From contig OZ024742.1 in the NCBI GenBank assembly GCA_964016885.1, forward strand, positions 77,190,001 to 77,254,000: a stretch of 64,000 bases of DNA, read 5' to 3'. Below, piece after piece: positions 2,073 to 37,433 of this stretch (within the stretch, counting starts at the first letter, position 1; each line of letters begins with the position of its first letter). A model generated the notes under the pieces. It made no database searches, was not told where the DNA came from, and was given only the letters and a program-made list of their open reading frames with translations. Source of the stretch: Eledone cirrhosa (lineage: Eukaryota). The translations under genes and the position numbers were made by a program.

Positions 2073-2711
2073 TAAAATAATAATGCTGTCCTAAAATAAT
2101 AATGATGCAAGCCTCATCAGGAGCGCGTGTTTTTATTGATAATATGAACTTGCCAAATCGTAACAATCTCTTTCTATACTTACCTGTTTAGTATAATATT
2201 TCCTAACGCATCGATCTTTGAAGAGGAAAACCAACTACAAGAACAAAGCACAAACACCAATAGCAGTCAGATGACAGATATCTCTCTTTGCTACCCATCA
2301 ACCATGAAATTCTATTCAGCGACTCTAACTTAGTCATTGACACGCTTCTTGGGGTTGTGACAGAATATACAGAATCACATCGATTGGATTTGTTGTTGTT
2401 TGCAGCAATCTATGGGAGACACTCTGACTATCCAAACCTCACCCTATACATTCCTATTTATAACACAGGATTCCACCCTGACGCAGTTCGCTCATAGAGT
2501 GATTGAATCTCCTCGTTCCTTTTGGTCGTAGTAACCTACCTCATGAAGCAGCTTTACAATATAGGCCTGAGGGGAACAGGACTTTTGTGCCGTCACCTAG
2601 GTACCTTATAGTACTGTAAAGCTATATAATTACTGAATTATATATTTGTTAAACTATAAATTTATTTAAATTTATTTAATCTAATCTTACTCTTTTAATG
2701 ATATCCTTTAA

Positions 2712-2770
<59 letters not shown>

Positions 2771-4886
2771 ATAAAAACACTTGGGTGCATTAGAGTCAAA
2801 CACACTCATCGCATTAGAGAAATGACAGTACAAGAAATAGCTCATTTATTTTTTATTTTTATATCCTTTATGTTTCTTAATATACCACTTACTCCTTTGT
2901 GTGAGTTATGGTGTCTATACGGGATGGGGTCTTCTATAGCTGGACGTAGATACTTTATCATCATTGGCGAATGGATACACACACTCTCTTGAGCTGGTTG
3001 GTATGTGAAAGTTTAGCACGTGATTGATTCTGTGGGTATAGGGTTTTGTATATGTGGGTATATTTGTAGATATATATATTTTTTGTGAATATGTATATGT
3101 GTTTCGATGTATAGTTATATGTATAACACAATTGTTTGTGGCTTATTCGTATTCAATAGCTGTTTGGATTCCTTATCATTTTAGTTTTTTTAGTTTATTA
3201 TTAATATTATTATTAGTTCTCTTCGGTTTATTGATTTTTTAGTTTTCTAATTTTTTTAGCTTATTTAGCCTATTTAGTCCCTTGTCCATTATTATATCTC
3301 TATCTTTATACTCATCCTTTGTCGACTAATATATTTCTATCTTTATATTGATCCCTAGTTGGAGTGTATCTTATTGTCTCCTTGACTAACTAATAGTTTA
3401 ATTTTAGTCTTCTACATCTACGATTAATGAACTTCATTTTTTCTAAACGTAATCTTTGCCTTATTGAATATATATATTATATTTTTATGTTCCTTCTTGT
3501 CCTCCATAGTTTTACTTCTTTCTGTTCCTTTTTGTCCACCATAGTTTTTATTGGAATCTTTACTTTGGATAACGTCAGTCGTCATAACGGAAATTAAATA
3601 TTATTCGATGAATGTATTCGCTCGTTTATTGGAATATCTTAATTTCTATCAGCATTAGTGACTTAAACTTTGTTCCAAATGGAGTGTACCATATTGTTTA
3701 TTTAACTTTAAATAGATTAATTAAAATTAAAAAGGGTTTCGATTCAGTTATTTGACTTTGAATAGTGGTATCATTTATTTTCACCTAACAGTTTGTTGTG
3801 CCTACGCGTTTTTGTTTTTGTTTTGTTTTGCTATAATTTGTTGCTTCTGTCTGTCTTTCCTATCCTTTGTCACTTGTGTGGATGAATATATTGAGTAAAT
3901 ATGATTTAAATCTTTCTCCCCTGCAATTATATGTTTTGTGTTGTAATATTAATATGTAATATTATATTGCTGTATGTATTTGAATTGCCTATATCTCTAT
4001 ACATCTTATGGTATATTTGCTAAACGCTCATTTATTTTTATTTTATTTTATCGGTATTTATCGGTAAATATTTACCTGTTATATTTCATTATGTATTGTC
4101 TATTGTATATTCTTTACCATATATATATATTTTTTTACCATACTTTATTTTATTTTATGGTATTATTTTTTACCCTGTGGTATACGTTATGTTTTTTATA
4201 CATGTTATGTTGACTTTGCATGGTACCTTGGAAGTATTTATGTTTTTTAATGTCAATATTTCTTTGATTTTAGTATTGTTTAATCACACCGTCAGGGTGA
4301 TTATTCTATTATAGTGCATATATATATATATTTATGTTAATATGTGTATGTGTAAATGTGTATATGTGTGTGTATATATATGTGTGTGAATGTGTGTGTA
4401 TATATATATATTAAATTTTATTTCTGTATTATATATTGCATTGTATTGTATATTATATTATATTTTTTATATCTTATTTCTCGGATTATATTACTATGTT
4501 GTATTTCGAGTATTGGACATATATTGTACTTTTAACGTGGCTATGTTAATGTTTGCTGGCTCTCTTGCCCTATAGTTTTTTATGTACCAATGTACCCTAT
4601 TAGGTTTGACACGTCTTTCCTGGATAATTTTCAGAAATATCCTTCCTTACATATTATCGGGTGTGTTATAAATATTATAAATGTTTACCCATTAGTAATA
4701 TAGTGCCCTTTCTTAGTTACCTGAATTCTAAATATGTCGCAACATCCTAGACCTTGCCTCCTTATCCTGTTTATATATTACCTGCATATTATATCTTATA
4801 ATGTAATATTTAAATTTCTATTTTTCTATTTCTCTATTCTTCTGAATTTTGGCTTGTTCTAGCCGTTGATATTTTTTATATTTTCC

Positions 4887-6859: not shown

Positions 6860-7215
6860 GGTGGATATAAAATCAGTCTGCTGGACTTTGCAGACCATGT
6901 TTACGTGTGATGGAAGCAGGATGCTAAATTAAGGGCAAGAATTGCAGGTGCTTTTACAGTAATGCGCTAACAATATTTTCAATTCTATATTTATGCCAAC
7001 TCTTATCTATGGTTATGTATATTGAGTAATCAGCAAAAGAATACGATCGCGAAAACAAGCGGCCGAAATGCGGTTCCTCTAAATGGTTTTTGGAGCCCTG
7101 TTACCCTATAGGGTACATAATTCGCAGATCAGTGTGTGAAGCATATGAAAGAAATTAACAGAACAACTTCATGACTACTGGAGTACGTTGGCAGTCGCTA
7201 CACTTGAGGTGTAAT
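6860..7215 (+). mobile_element. Degenerate RTE-type LINE RT fragment
   Basis: KISLLDFADH resembles the RT LLFADD region. CAAGCGGCCGAAATGCGGTTCCTC reads QAAEMRFL, an RTE C-terminal motif. Confidence 0.55.
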
Positions 7216-8168
7216 AATTCTGAGACGCACACACATAGATACCAACATTACATACATTTATAACATTACATTTCCTATTTTATGATGTACTAAAACTTAA
7301 ATATAAAAACATATTAATATACTATCAGAAAGCAGTTTCCTGTAAATGTATCTCTTAATAAATTCCAGATATCTTTGGAAAAAATGCGTTTAAAATCCAC
7401 GAATTGATCTATAATGATACGCTCTTATATTAAGTAAATAGCTATATTGCATTTTAATATACATCCAATAATTATCGGATTGGTATTAAACATAACATTT
7501 TCTTAAAATTATGTCGATGCTAGAATATACTTTGCATTTGATGCAATAATTAGATTATATATTTGCGGCTAGACAGAAAATATGTTTATCTTATATAAAC
7601 AATAACATTTCAAATATTCCTGACATTTAGTAAAGTAATATTGAAACAGTCCTAAAAATAAGAGCAGGTCTCAGGAATATTGATCCCATCTACCCAGAAA
7701 CCAATGAATTTGATGTCACCGATACGAATCCTGAGCATCTACAGTTTATGTAGATGTAGAACAGACGGACAGGAAACCTGCAATCTAATACATAATTATA
7801 TTACAAAGTAAGCCTCACCAAAGGCATGGGAAATCCTGAAATTCGTGATAAAGCAGATGACACGCTCTTCTACTAGAGTAATTTATCCTACAAACGTATC
7901 AAAAAATCAGAAAGTAAAATGAACGAGCTGGCTAACTCATTTGTAAGATATTCTGGATGCGAGATATGAAAGGTTCATAGGTTTCCAAATGGTAAACTAA
8001 TCAGCAGTAAAATAAATAGAAAAAACGAGTCGGTGACATAAAAGTTATGGATGGAAAAAACAAGTCGAGTGGAGAAAAATTGGCAAATAGAAAAGTATGT
8101 AAACATACTTCAGCAGCGGCAACATGTTGCTTATTATTTGTATATTAGTATTTAAAGGCACACAGAAT

Positions 8169-8282
<114 letters not shown>

Positions 8283-8513
8283 CATATATATATATAAAGC
8301 GAGAAGGGAAAGAAAGAGAGAAAGAGAATTACGAGGTTTTAATGTTTGCAACTGTTACTAGGATCATATAAAATTGACTACTAAAATAATTACCCACCTT
8401 CGTATCTATGTATCTATATCCTTTCTCTCACTTCTCACTCCCTCTCTCTCACACACTACCTCTCTCACAGTCTCACTCTTTTTTCTATTTATATATACAT
8501 ACACACACACATA

Positions 8514-8580
<67 letters not shown>

Positions 8581-8782
8581 CGGGGAAACGCCTTCTCCAT
8601 TCTCTCCACTGGGGCTGTGGGTGGGCCCCATCACGTACCGTTGTAGTTGTTGTAGAAGAAACAGGATGACAATAACTGGAAACTACGTGGTGGGTACTGA
8701 ACATTTAATTAAAGCTGCCTAATTATTTTGACAACGATCTGAATCGATACGTGCCTAAATAACAGTAAGCAATTAAAGTATA

Positions 8783-8840
<58 letters not shown>

Positions 8841-8969
8841 ATATATATATAAATATATAAATATATATAGATATATATGCTATATATGTATATATTTACA
8901 TATACAATATAAGTATATAGACATGAGCACACACACACACATATATATATATGTGTATATATATATATA

Positions 8970-9182
8970 TAATGGACAAATTTGAACAGGAACAAAACAG
9001 AGAGGCAGTACAACGAATGTTTATTAATTTCACGCTCTGGAGAGTGGGGTGGTGGTGGGGAACGACGTTTCAGGCATAAGCCCTTCCTCAGGTGAGAAGT
9101 GTGTGGGAACAGAGTTCAAAGGGTGTGTAGGGAGACATATATCAAAGGGTGGAGAGACATATATCGAAAGGAAACGGTGCGA
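8970..9182 (-). mobile_element. Short PLE 3'-end fragment with hammerhead core
   Basis: Minus strand at 9064-9091 reads CTGAGGA-AGGGC-TTAT-GCCT-GAAA-CG-TC, then AATAAA and (TA)n. Flanked by inverted copies of the same DNA (~8830-8945 and ~9183-9300). Confidence 0.65.
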
Positions 9183-9284
9183 ATATATGTGTGTGTGTGT
9201 GTGCTCATGTCTATATACTTATATTTTATATGTAAATATATACATATATAGGATATATATCTATATATATTTATATATATATAC

Positions 9285-9439
<155 letters not shown>

Positions 9440-10025
9440 AGTATAGAGGCGGGAGGAACCGGAAATCAATCAATGTGTCCTGTAAGCAGTTTCAACCGTG
9501 TCTGCTTTACTCTGATATACTACTCTGTTCCTGCTGTGAAGGTTTATGTTCCTATAGTTCTTACAGATTACTGAATAAAAGACACAGCGGGATATTCTTT
9601 AATATTTGCCAATACCAATATTTTCCTTACAAGTTGCATATATTAGCGTGAGGAGACGTCATGCAGAAAGATTTGCAAAAACAAGTAAAGTGGCATTAGA
9701 AAATATAAAACAACAGAAGAAATCAATAAAACTGAAAAAAAAATATTCATATAAATCTCATCAATAGTTGATCTTAATATAAAGCGCAAATAGAGAAGTG
9801 CATGTTGAAAATAAGATCGAAAGACCGATGACATTGGGGCTCTCCGCATGACTTTCAATTTAATAATATGTGCATTTAATGATTGTGCAAGATCAAACGT
9901 TTATAATTAACTCCATTGTGTGGATTTAATAATGAAAATCAGCTCTGTTATTCCATCACAGCATAATGATGCGCATTAATTTATACTATCGAAATCTTGT
10001 GTTAATTATCCCGAAAGAATGATTA

Positions 10026-10084
<59 letters not shown>

Positions 10085-10240
10085 TAATAACAACAACAAC
10101 ACCAACAATGATGTTAGCAATAGCAATAAAGAAAATATTGCTAAAGATGAGAATGATCTTTTAATTTATTAAGAATTAATATAACGCAACTAAAACAACA
10201 ATGATATTGATACTCCTATTAATGCTACTACTATTACTAT

Positions 10241-10330
<90 letters not shown>

Positions 10331-10578
10331 TTTCTGTATTAACCACAAGGGTTTACATAAAGTAGACATTAAGGACAGTGCCGGACAATACAGGACGGTA
10401 CAAATGGGCATTTCTGCGTGTAAAAAACAAAAACAGAGGATGTAACAAAAAATAACAATGAAAAATTCCCCAATAGGGGGGAGACTTCGGAGGGCCATTT
10501 GTGGAGAAAGCCCAGTAAAAGGCCACAATGACCCTGACCACCAAGGCAAGTGCCCTCTCCCAGTTTTCCACCTTTAAT

Positions 10579-11607
10579 TTACAGATATATTCTCACTCGG
10601 GCCATTCTTGCTTCTCTCACCCATCTTTCAACAAAATGCTGGGAAGAGAGTACTTCCCTCTCTACTCTGATTTTCCTTTTCAAATGAAATTTGAAAAAGT
10701 CAATCAGAGCATCACCGAAGAGGTAAATGCTCGTCATCAGCCCTTTCAAACGTGTCCACCATACTATCTCTTTCCCCATGGCCACCAGACAGATAAAAAC
10801 TGCCTGCCCTTCCCGGCTAAAGGAGGAGGGCGGGGCAATCCTCACGATGGACTTAGATGATAGCCGGATCCGTCCTAAACGCGACAGCAGGTGTTCGACA
10901 TAAACCCACAAGTCAGCAATTTTCGGACACTGGACGAGTGCGTGCAGGACGGTTTCGTCGCCCTGTGCGCATCTTGGACATGCCCGACTGACGGCACCTC
11001 CATGCCTGTAAATTTTATCCCGAACTGGCAAGGCTCCTCGGTAGCACTGCCAGGCCAGAGATTTCTGGAAGTTGTCCATAGGCCCTGGCCCGAAAGTTCT
11101 TCCAAAGAGATTGGCTAGTTGATTTTCGTCGACGCCTAGAGTTTCCCCAAGTACCTCGTCGCTCTTCCCCTCCACTAATCCTCTATAGAACGCCGAGGTG
11201 GAGTTTCCACCGATCACATTGCCCGATTGGTCGAGGGCTGTGAGCGCCTGAAGACATTCCAGTCTCCAGGCGCTCCCTCTCGGTCTTCGCTTGACCCAGA
11301 ACTGCAGCTCCGTCAAGGAAACGAGCTGGGGAAATACGTGTCTAGCAAACGGCGACCACACCTGATCACCGTCGAGGAAGTGGTGGAGATGTCGTAGCCT
11401 GAGCGCGTGCCTGTGCATCATCAGCCACGGCATGCCCAGCCCTCCACGTAGCGGGTGTTGACAACAGATGGACCGCCTGACCATCGGAGCGCGTCCCTTA
11501 CACAAAAAGCGAAAGAGCAAACGCTCCAGCGCAGTCAAGCGAGGCTTAGGACAAGGTACGACGGTCAGGCGGTAGCAGATGACAGACGCGATGTACGCGT
11601 TAGCCAC
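10579..11607 (-). pseudogene. LINE ORF2 C-terminal region with zf-RVT-type CCHC motif
   Basis: GGLGMP motif and CPRCAQGDETVLHALVQC. Confidence 0.88.
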
Positions 11608-11726
11608 CTCCGCTCGACCTTTCAGGGATAGCTTCCTCTAGGCCCATTTCTGGGTGAGAGAAGCCACCCTGCTCGTCACCACGTCCCAGTTTTTGTCCGT
11701 CTGGAGGTCCGGACCGAACCAGACCC

Positions 11727-12638
11727 CTAGCAATTTATCGGTCCGTCCGTCCAGCGTCCGACGATGCTGTTGGACGGCATGGACCTGTCTCTCCAGGTGC
11801 CGAGCTGCAGGCCCACTGACTTTTCCTGGTTGATCATTGCTCCTGTCACCGCTTCGTATTCTCTTAGTGTAGTGCCGATCGCCTCGATGTGTTTGGCGTT
11901 CGACACCACTACGGTGACATCGTCCGCATATGCTGACACGGATCTTCCGCATCCTAGTTCGCGCGGGACGCCCCTCAACGTCTCCAGTTTGTGCAGTAAT
12001 GGCTCGAGAGTCAATACGTATAAGAGAGACGAGAGGGGACATCCTTGGCGGACCGAGCGCATGATGTTGAACGGTTCCGACAGGTGACCGTTCACTCTCA
12101 CCACAGAGCAGATGTCGCTGTGCATGGCAGCGATCCAGCCTCTGAAGACGGGCCCAAAGCCAGCCGCCCTCAAGACTGCCGCTAGGTAACGATGGTCGAC
12201 CCTATCGAAAGCTTTCGACTGATCTAAATTGATCAAGGACCCACCCGTGCCAGGTTCCCTAGCTACCCTCTCTACGATGTATCGCATGAGGTGGAGGTTG
12301 TCGTGGATGGATCTGTCGGGAATGGCGCATGTCTGCGCCTCTCCCACCAGACCACCAACGACAAGCGCCAACCTCTTTGCTAGCACCTTGGCCAAAATCT
12401 TGAACTCTGTGTTTAGCAGAGTTATGGGCCGGAAATTTTCTATGTTATCCCCCTTGTTCGGATCCTTTCTCAACAGTTCCACCGCTCCTCGGCTCACAGA
12501 ACTGGGAATTCTCCCGTTCTTTTGCCAGTTGCAGTAGACGTCCGCCAAGAGGCCTCCGAACAAGTCTGGCATCTGTACGTAAAGTTCATAGGGCAGACCA
12601 TCCAAACCAGGCGATTTACCCCTTGTGCAGCCAGTCAT
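11727..12638 (-). pseudogene. LINE ORF2 reverse transcriptase domain (disrupted)
   Basis: RT motifs QGCPLS and YADD. Continues in another frame. Confidence 0.9.
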
Positions 12639-12698
12639 TGCCTCCCTTACTTCAGCGGCTGTTATCGGCTTTTCTTAACACTCCGCCTCAGTGGCCGA

Positions 12699-14312
12699 GT
12701 AATATGCTTCGGTAATACAGAGATCACAAGATGTTCTTCGTCCATTGTACGGTTGGGCCCTAGCTAAAATATCCCATGTTAGTGAGTGTTCAATGTTGGT
12801 TTTTAATGAGCCAAACTAGAGATGTTGAACATCTGTTGTTAGGGTCTCGGAAGGAAAAAGAGTGCGCGTTATAGCGTGCCTTAGAAGGGTTAGAGGTAGA
12901 CTCGATATAGGAGCTGGTATTCGAAGCAGTTTTAACCGTGCACCTATAGACTATGTTGGGTGTCAGGCAATTTCCATTTAGTGGGCATTCATTAGGGTAA
13001 CGGCAGTTGCAGTTGCTTCTGCGGTTAGTGAGAGTAGAGTAGTTTAATCTAAGTGGGTAGTCAGTGTTAGAAGGATTAGATGGGGGACGTGTGCTACTAG
13101 AGTAAGTATTGGTGTAGTGGCGTGGTGTATTTGATAGGGGTGGTGGTACCGCGGTGTGGGAGTTATACTGTCTTATTTTATGATGGTTACTGAATGCAAT
13201 GTGGCTAGCTAGGTTAGGTGTTGTGGAGAATGAGATTTTAATATTATTTTTATTAAAGAGTTTGTAATATCTATGGTTGGGGGGTAAATGTTTAGATAGC
13301 ACAGAGAATAAGCGTTTAGGGATATTAGTGGCTAGATTAGATGAGAGTGGGGGGTTGAGCCAGGTGATATTTCTAGGCCTATTCCTTCTAGGGGCTCTAG
13401 TTGAGTTGGTAGGGGCCTTCCTAGGGTTATTATTACCTGGGGATTTGTTATTTGTCATCCCATTTCTCATTCCTATTCTAGAGTTGATTTTTAGATTTCT
13501 ACTTGGAGTGGGGAGCAGGCCTCTGCCACCATTAAAATTCCCTGTAAAGGTGCTGTAACTGCTAAAACTCCGGTGAATCTGGCTATATTCTAAGGTATTC
13601 CTAGTTCTAGTGTTAAGTTTATTATGGTGAATTGCTGTGTTATGGCATTTAGGTATGTAGTAAATGGACTGTTCATAACCAGATTCGGAAAGTGCCTTAT
13701 TATAATATTGTGCATTGTTTATAAATATCTCCTCATTTGCTGATAGCATGGAGATCCTATATGAGATAGATTTGATTACTGCTCTGATGACTGCCGGTGT
13801 GTGGTTAGAGTGTGGGCTAATATAAGTGAGTATTTCACCTGGTTTATGGTAAGGGTAATATAGGTTATTGTTGAGATCCAGGGTGACGTCTAGGAATATT
13901 ACTACTTTATGGTTCGGCTCGATGGCGATAGAGAGACCGTTATTATTAAAGAATCTATGTAATTGTTTTTTAGCAAATCAATTAGTGCAATTGTAGATTG
14001 CAAATAGGGTTTCGTCCCTGTATATTGCGCCTTGCAAGGGTTGTATTTCGGCTCTGGTGTTGTGTAATAGGTAAATTGCAACTAAATCGGTGATTTGCGC
14101 AGAGTCACTTGAGCCCATCGTGATGTCAAAGTTGTCTGTTCTGTCTTTTCTAGTCCAGAGTGCTCCGTTGAATTCAATGATGGTCTGCCTAGCCATAAGT
14201 ATGATGTCAGTCTCATTATTGCTTATGTCCGAATTGGTGCTGGCTAGGGTTAATGCTTTGTTGAGCAGTTCCGGGGTTATTGAAGCGTAATAGCTGTCGA
14301 TGTCAAATCTAT
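12699..14312 (-). mobile_element. Naiad-type Penelope-like element, partial inverted copy (RT to GIY-YIG)
   Basis: FDIDSYYASI, FDITMGSSDSAQITDLV, IYRDE, RNITWLNPPLS, CNCRYPNECPLNGNCL, NIVY...SYIEST. Closely similar inverted copy of ~14980-16585. Confidence 0.9.
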
Positions 14313-14324
14313 CCATGTTGAGCA

Positions 14325-17260
14325 AGCTGGAACTCAGGATCTCCCTTAATGCCATAACTCTCCAGACAGGAAGACATACCTCAAATAGTAATACAGAGTG
14401 TCAACTCTTTCATCCGAAGAATAAGATGGAAAGCCTTCCACTTTGACCGTGCGGATGCTGCTGCCGCCGGAAGTACAGCAAACAGATATGGATTTACCAC
14501 CTGCAAGAATCCCCCAAACAGCATCCTGCTGGACCCTTTTGAGAACAATCTATTCAACTTCGTCAGGAGCATTAAATTCAAAAAGCATTGTAGACACAAG
14601 AATAATTTCCTCACCAAATTAGCAACAACTATAAAACAATTTAAAGATAGCTACCTCTTACATGTTATGTCTGACAAAACTAAAAATCTATACACCATGA
14701 CTTCTGAAACTTACAACTCTTTCCTACTTAAGGAACTTAATATAAACTATAAAAAAACAATACCCTCCAGTGTAAACGTACTTAACCGAAAAGGCTTTGG
14801 TTAAGGACTTGCATCTGGATAGATTTACCCACTGTACCAACAACCCCAAGGTTCTCTGTCAAGGATCATAAGCCAATCTTTATAGAGAACCAATCTATTA
14901 CACTTATAAGCGCAAGCACATCTGACCTGGGTCGTATCAGTAAGAACATCCTTGGTAGGATCATCCCTGGGCTACGGGATTATATTATTGAAGCTATTAC
15001 GCCTTAATAAACCCGGAAATGCTCAAAAAGCATTAACCCTAGGCAGCACCAACTGGGACATAACCAATAATGAGATTTACATCATACTTATGGCTAGGCA
15101 GACCATCATTGAATTCAACGGAGCACTCTGAACTAGAAAAGACAGAACAGACAACTTTGACATCACGATGGGCTCAAGTGTCTCTGCGCAAATCACCGAT
15201 TTAGTTGGAATTTACCCATTACACAACATAAGAGCCGAAATCCAACCCTTGCAATGCGGAATATACAGGGACGATGCCCTATTTGCAGTCCACAATTGCA
15301 CTAGTCGGGGCATTGATTTGCTAAAAAAACAATTACATAGATTCTTTAAAAATAACGGTCTTTGAGCCGATCCATAAAGTAGTAACCTTCCTACACGTCA
15401 CCCTGGATCTCAACAATAACCTATATTACCCTTACCATAAACCAGGTGAAATACTCACTTATATTAGCCCACACTCTAACCACACACCGGCAGTCATCAG
15501 AGCAGTAATCAAATCTATCTCATATAGGATCTCCATGCTATCAGTAAATGAGGAGATATTTATAAACCATGCACAATATTATAATAAGGCTCTTTCTGAA
15601 TCTGTTTGTGAACAATCCATTTACTACATACCTAAATGCCATAACACAGCAATTCACCATAATAAACTTAACACTAGAACTAGAAATACCTTAGAATATA
15701 GCCAGATTTGCCGGAATTTTAGCAGTTACAGCACCTATACAGGGAATTTTAATAGTGGCAGTGGCCTGCTCCCCACTCCAAGTAGCAAACTAAAAATCGA
15801 CCCTAGAATAGGAATGAGAAATGGGATGACAAATAACAAATCCCCAGGTAATAATAACCCTAGGAAGGCCCCTAACAACTCAACTAGAGCCCCTAGAAGG
15901 AATAGGCCTAGAAATATCACCTGGCTCAACCCCCCATTCTCATCTAATCTAGCTACTAATATCCCTAAACGCTTCTTCTCTGTCCTATCTAAACATTTAC
16001 CACCCAACCATAGATATTACAAACTCTTTAATAAAAATAACATTAAAATCTCATTCTCCACAACACCTAACCGAGCTAGCCACATCGCATTCAGTAACCA
16101 TCATAAACTAAGACAGTATAACTCCCACACCGCGGTACCACCACCCCTATCAAATACACCACGCCACTACACCAATACTTACTCTAGTAGCACATCACCC
16201 CCATCTAATCCTTCTAACACTGACCAACCACTTAGGTTAAACTACTCTACTCTCACTAACCGCAGAAGCAACTGCAACTGCCGTTACGCTAATGCATGCC
16301 CACTAAATGGACATTGACTGACACCCAACATAGTCTATATGTCCACGGTTAAAACTGCTTCGACTACCAGCTCCTATATCGGGTCTACCTCTAACCCTTC
16401 TAAGGTACGCTATAACACGCACTCTTTTTCCTTCCGAGACCCTAACAACAAATATTCGACATCTCTAGTTAGGCTCATTAAAAACCAACATTGAACACTC
16501 ACTAACATGGGATATTTTAGCTAGGGCCCAACCGTTCAATGGACGAAGAAAATCTTGTGATCTCTGTATTACCGAAGCATATTACATAACTCTATCACGA
16601 CCTCTACCGATTAACGATAGAACGGAGGTAACTATTAGCTGCCAACATCGAAGGGCTAATTCCTTCGCCAACAGAATATTTGACACAACATAGTCATCTA
16701 GCCCCATTGTTACTTGTAGCTAATAAGTTAAATAGCTATAACTAACTTAGATAATTATAAGTTACCTCCCCTACATTGTCCCTCAATTAAAATATTTAAA
16801 AATTTGCACTTAACTATAAACTACCCACAATTTCTAATCTCTCGAGGAGTTACTTCCCCTGAACCAACCTCTTATTAGTAATGTAAATATGTCCATTGGC
16901 GGCCATTTTGTTACCCATAGGCAGACCTCACACAATGCAACCTCGACAGATGAATATTGCTTGATTATGGCTGACAATTGATACACCCAGGACACCATAG
17001 TGAAATACCATATATGGAACATTACATTATGTAACATTCTCTCCTTATCTTAATTTATATTCCTTTGAAGTTCCGATGAGCCGCTCTGTTTTTAAATATG
17101 TTAATTATTTTCAACTGAACCAGATCAATAATGATATATAGTCATTTGATCCAGAAATATTATATGGAGTAGTGAAACAATAGTAAACGGACATTATTAT
17201 TATTAATATTATTATTATTAATATTATTCTCTACATTCCTTACATCAAACTAAAATATGT
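14325..17260 (+). mobile_element. Naiad-type Penelope-like element, near full length, frameshifted
   Basis: N-terminal SFIRRIRWKAFHF and YGFTTCKNPP, RT motif IYRDDAL, RNITWLNPPFS, CNCR zinc motif, GIY-YIG (IVY...YIGST), CDLCITE. The 3' UTR carries an HHR-like motif. Confidence 0.92.
17070..17188 (+). ncRNA. Hammerhead-like motif with long stem II insertion
   Basis: GTT-CCGATGA-GCCGCTCT...(~80 nt)...GGAGTAGT-GAAA-caataG-TA-AAC, in the Naiad 3' UTR. Confidence 0.55.
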
Positions 17261-29030: not shown

Positions 29031-30539
29031 TTAAAACATATTTAATGTTGGTCTATATTTTTGAATAAACATATTTTCCTTATTTATTCGCATTTGTTCT
29101 GTTGTATTGTTAGCGCAAAGGTAAAATGGGAAGACTTGGAATGTGGGTGTCTTATTACTTGCGCAAATGTCTAGATGTGCACTTAGTGGTATCTGTCTCG
29201 TGGTTGGATCTCGTAATTGTTGGCGATGAACTGTCATTCTCTTTCTGAGTGTGAGTTTAGTTTGTCCTATATAATCTTCATTGCATCCTTTACATTTAAT
29301 GACATAAATTAGATTTTTTGATGAGCAAGTGAAGTGATTTTTTACAGTAAAATTTTGTCCTGATTTAAATGTATACGTGTTGCCTTCAATGAGGTGAGTG
29401 CAGATTCCACAATTAGAGCGACCACATTTTTTGATACTTGGTTGTGGGTTTGTGGTAGGTAATTTGGCGTTGGTGAGTAATGTTTTCAGTGATTTTGGTT
29501 GTCTTTTTCTTTTGATTATTTTGTGTGTTTCAAGGGCTTTTTTCATTCTTGGGTTTTGTTTTAGTAGTGGGATGTTATTGTGAATAGTGTTGTAAGCTTC
29601 CGCATTTCTTGGGTTGTGTGTTGAGATATATGATAGAATATTGGACGTACCTTGAATTTGTTTCTGTTTCCGAAATTCATCAATGCCTATTGGTTTAGCC
29701 CTTTCTATTCCATTATTTATTAGTAATAGTGGGTACTCTCTCTCGAGTAGAATTTCCTTTAATTCTTGAAGTCTTTTATTTCGCGTTTCATAATTGGAGA
29801 CAATTGTGCAAATTCTTCTTGCTAGGTTAAAAGGAATGTTCGTCTTCGTGTGCTTTGGATTGTTGGAGGTGAATAGCAGATATTGTTTGGAATCTGTTGG
29901 TTTGTAGTGTATGTCAGTTTCGATATTTGTGTCTTTTTTTAAGATTAAGATGTCCAGAAATGGGAATTGATCTTGGCTGTATTCCATTGTGAATTGGATG
30001 TGGTTATTGATGCCGTTTATTAAGTTTTTGAAATCCTTCAGTTGGTCAAGTGTGTGGGACCAAAGAATGAGGCAATCATCCAAGTAGCGTTTCCAATTCT
30101 CTGATAAATATTTGTGGAAGTTCAATCCGTATTTTGATTTGGACTGTTCATATATCTGGACTTCTAAGTATGCCATGACTAAGTTGGCATACGTTGGAGC
30201 GGCTTTTGTACCCATCGCAGTCCCCGATATTTGCTTGTAAGTATAGCCATCGAAATAAAAAAAGTTGTTCTGTAGGATGAATTTTAATCCCTCGGTGATG
30301 AAGCTTTTGTCTATTCTGTCAGGTATCTCATTGGGATATTTCTCTAGCCAGAATCCTATTGCTTCTAGTCCATATTCGTGTGGGATCGTTGTATAGAGAT
30401 TCACTACATCGAAAGACACAATAATAGTGTCGTTGTTGACATGTTTGGGGAGGTGGTTTAAGAGGTCCAGATCGTCTCTTACAAAGCTTGGTATGTGTTT
30501 CAGTATTGGTTTCAGTAGTATGTCTATAAAGTTGCTCAA
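29031..30539 (-). CDS. PLE RT plus GIY-YIG endonuclease (502 aa open segment; upstream part frameshifted)
   Basis: YLDD RT motif, thumb region, Cys motif and GIY-YIG in one frame. Confidence 0.9.
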   Translation of the reverse strand: MSNFIDILLKPILKHIPSFVRDDLDLLNHLPKHVNNDTIIVSFDVVNLYTTIPHEYGLEAIGFWLEKYPNEIPDRIDKSFITEGLKFILQNNFFYFDGYTYKQISGTAMGTKAAPTYANLVMAYLEVQIYEQSKSKYGLNFHKYLSENWKRYLDDCLILWSHTLDQLKDFKNLINGINNHIQFTMEYSQDQFPFLDILILKKDTNIETDIHYKPTDSKQYLLFTSNNPKHTKTNIPFNLARRICTIVSNYETRNKRLQELKEILLEREYPLLLINNGIERAKPIGIDEFRKQKQIQGTSNILSYISTHNPRNAEAYNTIHNNIPLLKQNPRMKKALETHKIIKRKRQPKSLKTLLTNAKLPTTNPQPSIKKCGRSNCGICTHLIEGNTYTFKSGQNFTVKNHFTCSSKNLIYVIKCKGCNEDYIGQTKLTLRKRMTVHRQQLRDPTTRQIPLSAHLDICASNKTPTFQVFPFYLCANNTTEQMRINKENMFIQKYRPTLNMF

Positions 30540-31782
30540 TCTGTGTGTTTCACATTGTGGGCCCGCTACAATTGGTCTTAATTTAAGGTCTGTGGGGTAT
30601 TGTGTTCACGCAGGCTGAGGTGGATTGTTTACAGGCATCGTTGATTATTTTACACTTGTGGATCTTCGGAAGTCCGTAACGGTTGCTGGTTTTGTCTTCA
30701 AAATTTGTTAAATAATCGCGTTCCTTTTTAGTTAGGTCTTCCTGGTATCGATAAATCAGTGTGTTTAATTTGGTCATTATTTTTGATTGCTGGTAGTTTT
30801 TTACTCTTTCATAGTAATTAGTATTTTGTAAGAGAGAGAACATAGAATTTTTATATTTTCAGCCTCCATAATGACAACAGTACTTCCCTTGTCCGCTTCC
30901 TTAATTATAATGTCCGTATTGTTATTTAGTTCATGGATAATCTCCCATTCCCTTTGACTCGTGTTGGGTTTGGGTTTAGGTTGCGGTAGTTCATGGTATG
31001 GGAAGGTAGCTGTGTGGTCAGAAAATTTGTCCAGAACTCTGTTTCTACCTTTTGTTGTGTTGTAGCTGCTTTTATTCCGTACAATTGATTCGTCGTCATT
31101 CTCCTTGTCAAAGAATTCCTCTGTGAGACGTAATTTTGTTCACGTGACAGCCAAATTTCATTTATAACCAATCAAATCACGTTTATTAAAAAATAGCCTT
31201 CGTGAGCCACCTTTTTTTAAAGTAAAGAAATTCAAACACACACACACACAACACAAGCACACACACACAAGCACACAAATAAACATACATATCTTTACTT
31301 TCTTTATTCAATAGAAAATCTGAATTCTGACACCCCAGCGAACTAAACATATTCACTGAACCAGAACAATTCTCCCATACCTTTCTCTTGACCATTATCT
31401 TTCACTTATCAAAAAATTCTCTAAAAAGGCTACAGAATGGATTTCCAAATAAGGGCACAAAAATTTAATGAAAACTTGTTCACGTGACAGCCATAATTTC
31501 ATTTATAACCAACCAAAAAAAAGCCTTCGTGAGCCTCCTTTTTTCAAGTAAAAAGAAATTCAAACACTCATATATGAAAAAACAACCTGTGACAACTCCC
31601 CCCTCTTATTTGAAGAACTATTGTAACGTGAACTGGCGCGAAATTTATTATAATTATTGACAAACCAATCAAATTACTTCTCGAAAAACCTGGCATTTCG
31701 AGCCACTTTTTCCATATAAAACAAGTAACATTCAGAGACCAACCAGATGTGAGAAAAACCACAGACCCTCCATCTCAACTCA

Positions 31783-33100: not shown

Positions 33101-34083
33101 CACTTTGATAATGCATCGTCTTAATTGATCTTGTCAATTAAGAACCAGCGTTACGTTTAGATCTACGTCATTTTATAACAAGTTTCATCTTTACCCACGA
33201 TGCTGTCGCGGACTGAAATAGAAATGTACATTTCTTCTGTACATTTCTCAATGATCTGATACCTTTCAAAAATTATTTTGTGCGAATCATTTTTTAGTAT
33301 ATAATCGCCAATCACTATTTTATTCAGGCAAACTTATTTTTATGTTTGTTTTTTCATCTTACTCATACATAATATTTAAATAAAGTACTCATCTGATTCT
33401 GCCAAGTACATTGAATTTCTTTTTTTTTTTTCTGAGTGGGTTAAAAATATTCAGGGTTGTTATAACACGTATTTCATGATTTTGTTTCCGCGTGGTATGC
33501 ACAAACGTGCCGATATGACCTAAAATACATTAATTGCATAATTATAATGTGAAGGTGAATAGATTTCACAGTGTTTATTCTTTAAAACGTTCATCGTCGT
33601 GTCAGTTTCACTTGTTATATTTTTAAATAGATATTGTTTTTTATCAGGCACACGTGGTTTCACATGTTAAAAATGTACGATGACTTTGGTTCAACATATC
33701 AGCTTATATATATATATATATCTATCGTTTAGGCAATTAAAAACAATCAGTAACTGCACATATTGGTTGAAAGTTGGGGAGTTGTAGAATCCAACTATCA
33801 TGCAACATGATTTTCTGGAAAATATAGTAAATATCCTAAACGGACGGTAGTCCGTTTAGTAATATTGTTGTGGTCGTGTTTTCGTTGGCAATCGTCTGTT
33901 TACGTGAGTACAGCGCGGCTCTACTTTATTTAACTGCGATAAAACTTATATGAGCATGAACAGTAGATCATTACACATCTTTTGGCTTAACAATCTAGAA
34001 ATTTGGTCCACCGGGAAAAAGTTTATAATCAAAGTTTGCTGATAAATCTTGTGTTCAATGAGTGAGTAGTAAGCGTGACGCTA

Positions 34084-34211
34084 AGGGAGGTAATCCAGAA
34101 ATGACGAATTTTTTTCGGCGGAACTCTTGTGATTGTGATTACGTTAGTCAAATGTAGTCAAATCGCCGAATCCCCTCCTCCTAATTGACTACGTCATTTC
34201 TGAACGGCCCT
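34084..34211. mobile_element. ~130 bp MITE with terminal inverted repeats
   Basis: AGGG...CAGAAATGACG (34096-34106) and CGTCATTTCTG...CCCT (34192-34211). Flanks resemble TWA target sites; Harbinger affinity is an inference. Confidence 0.6.
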
Positions 34212-34359
34212 ACTTGCGTCAGTGTGAAACATTACTTCACTTTTCACTGCTAAAATGCTTTTTAAATACTTCGTTAAAAATTTATGTTTATTATCAAAGC
34301 TATTTTTTGTACCAATCTATCAATAGTTTGCGAAAATATAGGTAAACATGTGAGTTACA

Positions 34360-34662
34360 TTTTTTTTAATCGCAACGATCGCTTTGTCGCACCGACTGTG
34401 ACACTGTCTGACTGTCTGTCTGACTGACACCTTTGTCGGACCGACACCTTTGTTCAAGCGGACAACTTTGTGTCACTGACACCTTTGTTCGTGCCGGCAT
34501 CTCTGCGAAACACCGATGACAACAACCAGACCAACATTTCACTTCATTCTTCATTCTACTTCAAGACCGATCGCCGAACGATCGTATCGGTTGCTCTTCA
34601 TATACCAGGTATTCAACAGATAGTTTGCACTTCTAGTATTATTAACAGTCGTGCGATTTTTT
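34360..34662 (+). mobile_element. Helentron/HINE-like terminal module
   Basis: T-run, then AATCGCAACGATCG...TCGCACCGACTGT, a (CTGT/CTGA)n microsatellite, a hairpin at ~34567-34592, the inverted match ACAGTCGTGCGATT and another T-run. Confidence 0.4.
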
Positions 34663-34783
34663 GTACCGATAGGTGCGAATAGTGCGCTATATTTTTGTAC
34701 CGATAGGTGCGAATAGTGCGATAGGTGCGAATAGTGTACAATATTTTCTGAGATTTGCATCCACTAATTTCGCTTAATTAAAA

Positions 34784-35579
34784 ATGATGTTTCGCGGCTT
34801 TATGATCGGCTTATTCATTTTTTCCATGGCACGGAAATGGAGTATTTCCATTTCGAATCAAAACTTTTCACTAAAATCGGGCAATTGGACTGATCAAATT
34901 CACATTCATGCCAGTTTTTACAAATCCATAATTAGAAATGTGGCGAAATCGAATGACCAGAAGGTATAAAAATATTAATTCAAATGTATTTACTTATCAT
35001 ACCAACAAAAATACTTAGATATTGTGTATACCTGGGGCCCGTCAGGGCCAGGTAATGTTAATCGCCAACATTGTTATCTGTTGTCCTTTTGTGAAAGTAT
35101 TGGTGGTTCATGTCGGCTCTAATGATCTGAATCCTCGTCGCACCGTTGGCACTACAAAGCTGTGCAAAGTAATACAATAATTTTTGCCCAAGTATTTTTG
35201 ATTAATCATTTATTTGTAAATTAAGGACAAAGTGCCCACTCGAGGCACAAAACCGGAAAAACAGGGGAAGAGTCTCTTTGCAAGGCTACAGAAAATAGCG
35301 GAAAAGCACCACTGTACACCCATTTTCTACAGTGGTGTCATTCCACGTCCACAAAGTGTAATTGAAAATAAAAATGACTTGGGCAAGAGAAATTCTCGTT
35401 TGGAAAAGTTTAATTACTGCATGAAAGAAATGATTCAAAAATTGAACTTGCCCAATGTTCACAACATTGAAAATTGGTCAAAATTTGACAAATCTGACTT
35501 CAAACCAGATATGATTCATTTGAACAATGTTGGAAATCTTAAATTGACACAAATTTTTGCCAATGTTTTTGCCACCTGA
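34784..35579 (+). CDS. SGNH/GDSL-like hydrolase (esterase), 3 exons: 34784-34963, 35019-35168, 35226-35579 (~227 aa)
   Basis: Phase-0 GT-AG introns of 55 and 57 nt join block I (KSIIRNV), block II (CIPGAR), block III (VVHVGSND), SGVIPR and block V (DMIHLNNVG) in one frame. AATAAA at 35617. Confidence 0.82.
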
Positions 35580-35759
35580 TCCTTGTTCTATGGCTGACTG
35601 AATAATTTTGTGGCTTAATAAAATGTCATCATACTAGTAATGCACAATGGTCATTTTTAAATTTAAATTTTATTAAATAGTTGTTGCTTGCATTGCCTTA
35701 AAATAGTAACAAGAATAAACACATACTTTTTAAAAATACATCATTATCAGTCAAATCAG

Positions 35760-36119
35760 TCAAATGTCACTAAAAGCCAGGTGGTTGATAACAACTTCTA
35801 TAAGATTAGTTGCATGCTCATACATTGGATCAGCTCTCATCAATGGCATTGGGTGTCTGAGATAATCGTGGAGATAACTGATGAAGTCACAAATGAAGTG
35901 ATGGTCTTCCAGTGTGAACAACTCCCTATATCCATTGATATATGTGATGGCTTCCGATTCATAGGTGCATTTTATGAGGAATTCCATGCATCCGATTTTC
36001 AGTGATTCAATGGGCATTTTATCAGAGATGATAAGGTATTTGACCACGTTTTGCTTTGTAAGTAATTTGGAGAGAATCACTGCAGTCAAAGTCATTTCTT
36101 TGCATGGGTTTTTGTCCAT
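35760..36119 (-). CDS. 119 aa ORF with BACK/BPM-C (SPOP-like) helical motif
   Basis: LTKQNVVKYLIISDKMPIESLKIGCMEFL matches the LTxxNVxxxLxxADxxxxxxLKxxCxxFI pattern. TTTTTAG acceptor immediately before the ATG. Minus-strand AATAAA at 35669-35674. Confidence 0.6.
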   Translation of the reverse strand: MDKNPCKEMTLTAVILSKLLTKQNVVKYLIISDKMPIESLKIGCMEFLIKCTYESEAITYINGYRELFTLEDHHFICDFISYLHDYLRHPMPLMRADPMYEHATNLIEVVINHLAFSDI

Positions 36120-36392
36120 TCTAAAAAGTTAAAATGATAAAGTATTACTACTATATAACTTACATCTATTGTTGTAACACCATTGAAATGCACAAGTTTC
36201 ACCAATTCACTATTATGCACTAATCATCTCAAATGCATTCATGATTTACTAGCTTTGTCGTTAAGCCAGTTGCCTCAACTAGATTGCAATTATAGTCAAA
36301 AGAACTTTAAAATGTCAATCACTTGTCAGTAATTCACTATGATTATTTAATTATTAGATAGTTGTTGCTTGCATTGCCTTAAAAAATAGTAG

Positions 36393-37433
36393 ACCAGATA
36401 GAAAAATGTGTACAGCAAAAAAAAAGTAATATTGTTGGAATATAAACCTTTAAAAATACAGGACAAGAAACTAAAATAAAACTTTAAAAGATAGGACAAT
36501 AAACTAAGATAAAACTTTAAAAGAATAGGACAAGAAATTAAGATATAACTTTAAAGAATTGGACAAGAAATAAAAAAATGTACAATAATATTAGTGGCAA
36601 CATTTTTTATTCGTTTCCTGTGCTATGCCCCAGTATCTTCTTGATTAGTGCATAATAATTGTCATGCTCTCATTGTGCGTTGCCCCTGAGCGGTTGGTTC
36701 TGGTTGGGGTTGGTTGGCTGAGCAGTTCTGCTCCGTCAGAATGACCATTGCAAGAAGAATTGGCCGATGCAACTGCAGGTCTCCTCCAAGAATGCACTTC
36801 TGGTCCCGCAACACCAGACGAAGATGTAGAAGACGACCGGGACAAGATGTCGACTCTGACCACTGACTACGGCACCTCCCTCAACCACCGGTCCTCCCTC
36901 CCTCTGTCCCGTCATCCCTCCAGTCCTCCTGCTCCCCCTTCCTGTACCAGAAAGCTGTGGCACGCATTCATCTGGACTGCCGGACTTGAACTCAAGGACA
37001 AGATGCAAGGAGAAGATGGACGGGTTGGTCAAGATCAAGGATGAGCGGGACGACAAGACCGTCCGCTGCTGCTCAAGATCTGTGCTCATGGGCCCATGGG
37101 TCCATTCACATTATGCATGACACATGAGGCGTGTCGCCGAATGATGAGATAGGGGTGTGGTTATGGCCCAATTGGTGTTCAAACCAGGATCAAATGATCC
37201 CCCCGGTCTGACGACGACCTCTGAATGTGGAACCCAGAGCCTATGAATGTGGAACTCGATTTTTTACCAATAAAAATTTTGCCACTAATATTAATGTAAA
37301 ATTCTTTAAAGTGTTATCTTAGTTTCTTGTCCTATTCTTTTAAAGTTTTATCTTAGTTTATTGTCCTGTACTTTTAAAGGTTTATATTCCAACAATATTA
37401 CTTTTTTTTGCTGTACGCATTTTTCTATCTGGT
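36393..37433. repeat. Inverted repeats (36393-36611 and 37269-37433) with ~30 bp subrepeats, flanking a GC-rich core
   Basis: ACCAGATAGAAAAATG...TTAGTGGCAA is mirrored on the right. Subrepeat consensus is about AAACTTTAAAAGAATAGGACAAGAAACTAAGAT. Confidence 0.88.

Follow-up and report, generated by a model that had tools for sequence, protein, structure and literature searches.

Positions 34784 to 35579 of the stretch of Eledone cirrhosa DNA analyzed here (64,000 nucleotides; hereafter, the window) contain a predicted spliced frame with the sequence blocks of an SGNH hydrolase, and they raise the question of whether this frame is a gene in its own right. The original prediction took it to be a transposon-type esterase acting as a stand-alone compact gene in a non-host-like island. 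We found that the flagged gene is an artefact of transposon deletion: the frame is chimeric, decays neutrally and lies inside a non-autonomous Helitron-like DNA transposon.

The predicted frame and its SGNH blocks

Both of the tiny introns that had been proposed, each GT-AG and in phase 0, were found in the sequence as predicted introns, and removing them reproduced a 227-aa frame with the motifs SIIRNV, CIPGAR, VVHVGSND and DMIHLNNVG in order. The AATAAA expected downstream could also be located. Apart from exon 1, which is treated further below, the parts of the gene are:

34964–35018 (+): predicted GT-AG intron, 55 nt, about 82% AT; the same in parent copies
35019–35168 (+): predicted exon with SGNH blocks II (PGAR) and III (HVGSND), from the sequence
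35169–35225 (+): predicted GT-AG intron, 57 nt, in frame and with three stops; without it, alignment to a GDSL frame scores 54 instead of 42
35226–35579 (+): last exon, with SGNH block V (DMIHLN); Pfam PF14606 (E 0.0027) and GDSL families in the ESM Atlas
35617–35622 (+): AATAAA, predicted poly(A) signal of the cargo gene, from the sequence

The SGNH identity held in part. Exon 3 matches Pfam Lipase_GDSL_3 (PF14606) weakly, under the cut-off, and the ten best family-bearing matches of this exon in the ESM Atlas all fall in a common family or clan, with GDSL lipases as the families displayed, but the GDS of block I is missing. Folded alone rather than as part of the spliced protein, the last exon gave a low-confidence AlphaFold model (mean pLDDT of 47.7). 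An alternative splice acceptor in exon 1 that would rescue GDS does not work, and the YKS found in its place is accounted for by a deletion. Contigs of four public runs of unrecorded type contained no intron-skipping joints, a result with no bearing on expression.

The frame lies in a young, dispersed Helitron-like element

The host genome is 3.0 Gb in size, AT-rich and dense in microsatellites. A genome search revealed that the flagged region is a dispersed young repeat and not an island gene: all 40 scored matches, from 371 candidates, were 98–100% identical across 1 kb. Comparison of 20 flanked copies gave sharp ends at 33834 and 37432, and the neighbors of the frame, which were to be checked together with its copy number, are parts of a Helitron-like element with the following features:

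33834–37432 (+): non-autonomous Helitron-like (HLE2) element; sharp ends common to dispersed copies, both matching the parent, with ~9 kb missing
33834–33859 (+): 5' terminus, TC and then a hairpin with a 10-bp stem; from the fold, exact copies and one compensatory pair change in the sister family
33858–33870 (+): left 13-bp subterminal inverted repeat, a perfect reverse complement of 37390–37402; kept in the sister family
35760–36119 (-): 119-aa open frame of no known family, in the parent too; no Pfam match below E 0.06
36394–36607 (no strand): internal inverted copy of the 3' end (about 160–220 bp), then a ~660-bp spacer; a 221-bp repeat has the same layout in the ~60% family
37390–37402 (+): right 13-bp subterminal inverted repeat, 30 nt from the 3' end, from the sequence
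37429–37432 (+): 3' terminus CTGG (CTRR), then T in 76/76 copies; related families end in CTAG

Genome-wide, the 5' end motif has 317 exact copies and the 3' end motif, present twice per element, has 816 (control 0 for each), while the RepHel–SGNH junction inside the element has 90 exact copies, including that of the window. Of these 90 copies, 77 have a 5' end, with A before TC in 75, and 76 have a 3' end, always with T after CTGG. The flanks of many copies are TA-rich and hence uninformative about target duplication. At three insertions in other repeats, however, comparison with empty paralogous sites revealed no duplication beyond one ambiguous T, attributable at the empty sites to either element end, and one further insertion, in a known intron, likewise lacks one. 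Of the two ends, only the 5' one forms a strong hairpin; the predicted fold of the 3' end is weak (-2.7 kcal/mol).

The 3' region has a structure of its own. An inverted duplicate of the 3' end lies ~1 kb inside the element (window 36394–37432; L248/L249) in all three related families, with a spacer that differs per family and that in the sister family holds a Cys/His-rich, PHD-like frame, as judged by eye. This unit is flipped in a few copies. Regular flip-flop replication was ruled out, with 76 of 90 copies oriented as in the window, one flipped and 13 without a call. A possible 50-nt intron precedes the 119-aa frame. Elsewhere in the window we observed a Penelope-like frame (29031–30605, minus strand; reverse transcriptase and GIY-YIG) independent of the element and a fragmented LINE with RVT_1 and zf-RVT matches (10579–14400, minus strand).

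A ~9-kb deletion joined the transposase to a cargo gene

A public-run contig departs from the window at 34928 with letters reading YIVGDS. In the genome, the parent copy at locus L064/L065 is about 12.6 kb long and matches window positions 33834–34928 and then again from 34928 on, with about 9 kb in between. Matches above the cut-off were obtained for Helitron_like_N (PF14214, E 5.7e-28), REP (PF23343), PIF1 (PF05970, E 9.5e-26) and DUF6570 (PF20209, E 6.6e-16), together with a weak match for UCH, and the RepHel of this copy is in several frameshifted pieces. DUF6570 is described as a marker of HLE2, and UCH as enriched in HLE2 subgroups c and d (PMC11417382). The window element is an internal-deletion derivative of this ~12.6-kb HLE2 parent (DUF6570, Rep, PIF1, UCH).

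In other parent-type copies, the window's ATG at 34784 continues for 323 and 827 aa into RepHel, and the flagged exon 1 therefore consists of 48 RepHel codons and the tail of a cargo exon:

34784–34927 (+): RepHel transposase ORF, codons 1–48; in parent-type copies the same ATG continues into RepHel
34925–34928 (+): deletion junction (~9 kb lost), from alignment to GDS copies and junction counts
34928–34963 (+): 3' part left from the cargo gene's NADAR/GDS exon (IIRNV...), from alignment to GDS copies

At 34925–34928, a RepHel Ser codon occupies the place of the GDS serine codon in this alignment. Because the junction falls between two codons starting with TC, a Ser is kept at the nucleophile position. 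The in-frame deletion thus produced both the hydrophobic N-terminus and the YKS in place of GDS. It had been suspected that YKS marked an altered copy or a mis-modelled exon 1, and rightly so: FYKS is the deletion junction, and exon 1 is not one natural exon.

The undeleted form is rarer. The GDS motif has five exact occurrences in the genome, and at the protein level seven copies among eight candidates retain IVGDS; the parent-type 5' side is found in 10 copies compared to 90 for the exact chimeric junction. Contig depth in another sample pointed in the same direction (about 25–30 over NADAR versus about 600 over the chimera), although depths are not copy numbers. Further deletion joints are visible among the public-run contigs. 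Altogether, the 227-codon frame is very probably a chimera of the first 48 RepHel codons with the SGNH half of a predicted spliced NADAR–SGNH cargo gene, in an element likely spread by RepHel acting in trans.

The parent carries a predicted NADAR–SGNH gene

Upstream of GDS in the parent, three successive exons match the NADAR profile (PF08719) at positions 4–67, 81–116 and 120–162. Each match is weak (E 0.005–0.05), all single-exon domain matches of the cargo gene fall under curated cut-offs and the read-through score is 30.7 bits compared to a cut-off of 35.1. The ESM Atlas also gave NADAR, at a low recognition score, and in a genome-wide NADAR search with four candidates the matches were two element copies. 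We modelled the cargo gene in four copies, of which one yielded 335 aa without a stop, two were frameshifted and one could not be modelled. The 335-aa model has four predicted GT-AG introns of 55, 217, 54 and 57 nt, with cargo introns being 70–82% AT versus 61–62% for exons, and the SGNH blocks are in order (IVGDS at 152, PGAR at 173, HVGSND at 199 and D/N-MIHLN at 313); in the best cargo copy, block V has N in place of D. In the NADAR part, a Glu is followed at a distance of seven residues by a Lys, and LVE supplies another Glu; by our own mapping, all three are at the places described as catalytic. A clear acidic residue is absent from the parent NADAR region at what we take to be the second position after LVE.

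Exon queries returned no protein-database relatives of the cargo gene. Two cargo exons had no meaningful match among PDB sequences, neither of two candidates linked the first NADAR exon to longer proteins, and the single match of the last exon among 1.84 billion representatives, a PYRIN-repeat protein, was judged spurious. Near related Rep genes at 80 metagenome and two viral-collection loci, the cargo exons gave no match with an E value under 0.44. Two observations concern the NADAR-part intron: its 213–217 nt (L064, 8210–8420) are internally repeated and rich in A/T runs, with degenerate inverted ends, possibly representing a small inserted element; and at L067/L068 a non-autonomous element of the sister family has inserted into it at an A^T site and itself contains another, partial 5' end.

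NADAR enzymes reverse the ADP-ribosylation of guanine in ssDNA, and a clam enzyme that adds this mark has been cited (PMC11543638). Tentatively, and judging from sequence, the parent gene may encode an accessory, dispensable enzyme, with a NADAR part that would strip ADP-ribose from ssDNA guanine and an SGNH part that would hydrolyze small esters or lipids. By analogy with phage NADARs acting against DarT1, the spliced NADAR–SGNH protein might serve the Helitron in counter-defence by removing host-added ADP-ribose from an ssDNA transposition intermediate. We regard this role as improbable; if real, it would mean that DNA ADP-ribosylation is used against transposons in animals.

Related families in the genome lack the cargo

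Of 691 candidates in a search for Rep, 144 were scored, and 75 of these matched. Among the 144 there was no uninterrupted RepHel of the window's subfamily (longest frame, 1174 aa). Near-intact RepHel frames exist in related families. In a sister subfamily (90% protein identity), RepHel measures 1904+507 aa, the subterminal repeat is the same, the end is CTAG and the hairpin shows one compensatory pair change. The third family, at about 60% protein identity, has uninterrupted RepHel frames of 2230–2245 aa, TC and a longer 5' hairpin, a CTAG end, a 10-bp subterminal repeat pair and, in the same layout, a 221-bp internal inverted copy of the 3' end. The NADAR–SGNH exons are missing from both sister-subfamily loci and from all six loci of the ~60% family. 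Spreading thus does not require the cargo, and its dispensability limits the weight of the finding.

Several other features of these families were observed. Locus L248 (1055–13870) and similar loci represent a young HLE2 family of ~12.8 kb in which uninterrupted, nearly identical RepHel frames of 2230 aa are numerous; it has a 5' hairpin with a 20-bp stem, a CTAG end and, by eye, a LINE-like 3' fragment downstream. At the N-terminus of the parent RepHel (L078, about 1310–1560; also L256 and L258), LLIIGCVELNPGP closes the leader and is similar to a 2A/StopGo motif, except that C replaces the customary D; the sister subfamily retains it, and the ~60% family is without such a leader. A literature search on 2A-like motifs (NPGP) listed no paper that also involved a Helitron. 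Helitron_like_N matches elsewhere in the genome (C20, C27, C19 and C16) are clustered, roughly 100–200 kb apart, suggesting large tandem arrays with another Helitron family.

Copies of the chimera decay as neutral DNA

From 92 loci, three without the exact junction were left out and the window copy was added, for a total of 90 junction copies. We found 34 intact copies, 55 disabled by stops, frameshifts or splice-site loss and one truncated copy; the window's own copy is among those still open. Thirteen of the 55 disabled copies (from 89) are hit at splice sites. Mean divergence from the majority base is 1.1% across the 90 copies. Raw dN/dS relative to the majority base is 0.74–0.76, that is, <1, and becomes neutral only with control for the mutation spectrum. 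When the same mutations were placed at random on like bases, the neutral expectation was 97.8 ± 8.1 synonymous changes, compared to 104 observed among 404 distinct changes (p 0.24); selection on a few of the copies would not show. These chimeras are copies decaying after insertion as neutral DNA. With the G-D of block I and the preceding strand replaced, their esterase function would be lost. Gene finders would predict about 34 false esterase genes in this genome from them.

Alternative explanations

We weighed these results against a working chimera, that is, a 227-aa stand-alone esterase under selection and perhaps targeted to membranes by the RepHel leader. The fusion is in frame, a Ser is at the nucleophile position, the RepHel upstream region and the AATAAA are retained and 34 of 89 copies, including the window's, are still open, all of which speaks for such an enzyme. 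It is nonetheless very unlikely given that block I has lost its G-D, that 55 of these 89 copies, at a divergence of about 1%, are disabled, with synonymous changes at the neutral level, and that the Ser is accounted for by a junction between two TC-starting codons. It is hardly credible that the repeat is some other mobile element (a TIR transposon, DIRS/Ngaro or a Penelope tail), as might be suggested by the ~200-bp inverted repeat near its 3' end and the Penelope RT–GIY-YIG frame 3 kb upstream. The structure of the parent refutes this, because both ends and all internal parts are common to an element that encodes RepHel; in addition, there is no target duplication and the element copies exclude the Penelope frame.

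For the cargo itself, two origins were considered. The NADAR–SGNH gene could have been captured from a host only recently and be carried as a passive passenger, which has been proposed for texim in fish, instead of being a long-standing accessory. Its four predicted introns, its absence from the two sister loci and the six loci of the ~60% family, and the lack of NADAR near the 80 metagenome HLE2 relatives are consistent with capture, which we consider doubtful because the search turned up no host progenitor (the two NADAR matches and the seven GDS-exon matches all proved to be element copies), although exon-wise searches are insensitive. Moreover, three of the introns are only 54–57 nt and, by eye, the sequence immediately preceding the first coding exon appears to be retained in the sister subfamily, consistent with loss of the cargo there. 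Alternatively, the cargo may have come from a LINE ORF1, entered the Helitron and gained introns later. NADAR has been reported in Ectocarpus Gypsy Pol and oyster Tx1 LINE ORF1 (PMC12477816) and SGNH in CR1 ORF1 (PMC4021074), so both domains occur in such ORFs, and an intronless, LINE-ORF1-like GDSL frame elsewhere in this genome can be aligned with blocks III–V (Z 4.7). This alignment is weak, however (the best of 500 shuffles scored 56 versus 54), no RT lies inside the element and the homologues are too few for a tree. These results do not establish a LINE ORF1 or Terminon origin of the SGNH domain, and we consider a LINE source rather unlikely.

Two other SGNH frames were observed. The sole genome-wide Lipase_GDSL_2 match (L245, 1414–2814, minus strand) is an intronless 466-aa frame that resembles a LINE ORF1 esterase; in the 10 kb downstream, we recognized no RT frame of at least 150 aa apart from a short RT-tail-like piece. 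On a metagenome contig (L207), an intact, intronless GHS-type SGNH (2179–2820, minus strand) lies 4 kb upstream of an intact 2291-aa HLE2 RepHel (6972–13847, plus strand). As a candidate relative of the cargo, the GHS-type SGNH of L207/L208 was rejected: a profile of 15 relatives scored the spliced frames at 4.8–5.5 bits compared to ≤3.7 for shuffles, and we treated it as unrelated.

Proposed mechanism and comparison with known systems

Helitrons are copied by a rolling-circle route (PMC5148889, PMC6431247). We infer that RepHel from an autonomous relative would recognize the ends and copy the intervening DNA by rolling circle, a process needing only the ends. An internal deletion of ~9 kb that kept these ends would have produced the shortened 3.6-kb element, which likely spread through the genome by RepHel supplied in trans with the chimeric frame as a passenger; the parent protein would most plausibly be an accessory hydrolase.

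The original view that the esterase is transposon-borne, intron-containing (as predicted) and not tied to a reverse transcriptase is supported. LINE ORF1 esterases (CR1/L2) and the GDSL ORFs of Terminons (PMC6431247) are similar in the order and style of their blocks (GDS, PGAR, HVGxND, DxxH), but the cargo gene is not an intronless frame upstream of an RT ORF; it has no RT and is a separate, predictedly spliced gene in a rolling-circle element. A parallel by description is texim, an SGNH gene with introns on fish Helitrons, an association reported only from fish (PMC4021074). Both are intron-containing SGNH genes (here, by prediction) on a Helitron without reverse transcriptase, whereas texim, expressed in testis, can comprise as many as 15 exons and precedes the Helitron coding region, and NADAR goes unmentioned in the available text of that source. 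Compared to YbiA-type NADAR hydrolases (PMC11543638), the cargo has weak PF08719 matches that span the profile and, by our mapping, Glu/Lys/Glu at the described catalytic places, but it is a predicted fusion to SGNH, split by introns and located on a DNA transposon. A literature search, with Repbase, subscription journals and bioRxiv supplements outside its scope, found neither a NADAR–SGNH fusion nor NADAR on a Helitron, with texim as the sole relevant case of SGNH on Helitrons and the Ectocarpus retroelement paper as the one bearing on NADAR; NADAR, lipase, SGNH and GDSL each have 0 matches in the supplement of PMC11417382, and the available part of PMC13282606 does not mention an esterase or SGNH. 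The predicted spliced NADAR–SGNH cargo would extend the SGNH–Helitron link beyond fish and add NADAR to the cargo of DNA transposons.

As for the element, Rep (HUH) with PIF1, DUF6570, subterminal inverted repeats and the lack of target-site duplication place it in HLE2, and the nearest RepHel relatives listed (31–37% identity; a list and not a tree) all bear DUF6570. It resembles the UCH-bearing subgroups c/d of HLE2 (Helitron2/Helentron) in its DUF6570 RepHel with a C-terminal UCH, and HLE2 generally in its short subterminal inverted repeats, end-sharing non-autonomous derivatives and absence of target duplication (PMC11417382). It lacks the canonical T^T insertion and 3' stem-loop, and instead has a 5' hairpin together with the 5' TC, 3' CTRR and A^T target described for HLE1 (PMC11417382), with a one-T ambiguity, while the 3' hairpin and DUF6570-free transposase of HLE1 are absent. 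This mismatch fits the layout of HLE2-reverse and proto-Helentron elements. The HLE2-reverse elements FoHeli3-5 of Fusarium (PMC5148889) likewise combine an HLE2 transposase with a 5' stem-loop before the left repeat and a right repeat 20–40 nt inside the 3' end, and proto-Helentron of Phytophthora, as described in PMC11417382, has the same layout and also ends in CTAG. Unlike these, compared here by layout and not by tree, the present elements form three lineages in an animal genome, with a further inverted copy of the 3' end (~220 bp) located some 1 kb inside the element. A layout described from Fusarium and Phytophthora, in which HLE1-like terminal bases are combined with a 5' hairpin, is thus present in three related animal HLE2 lineages.
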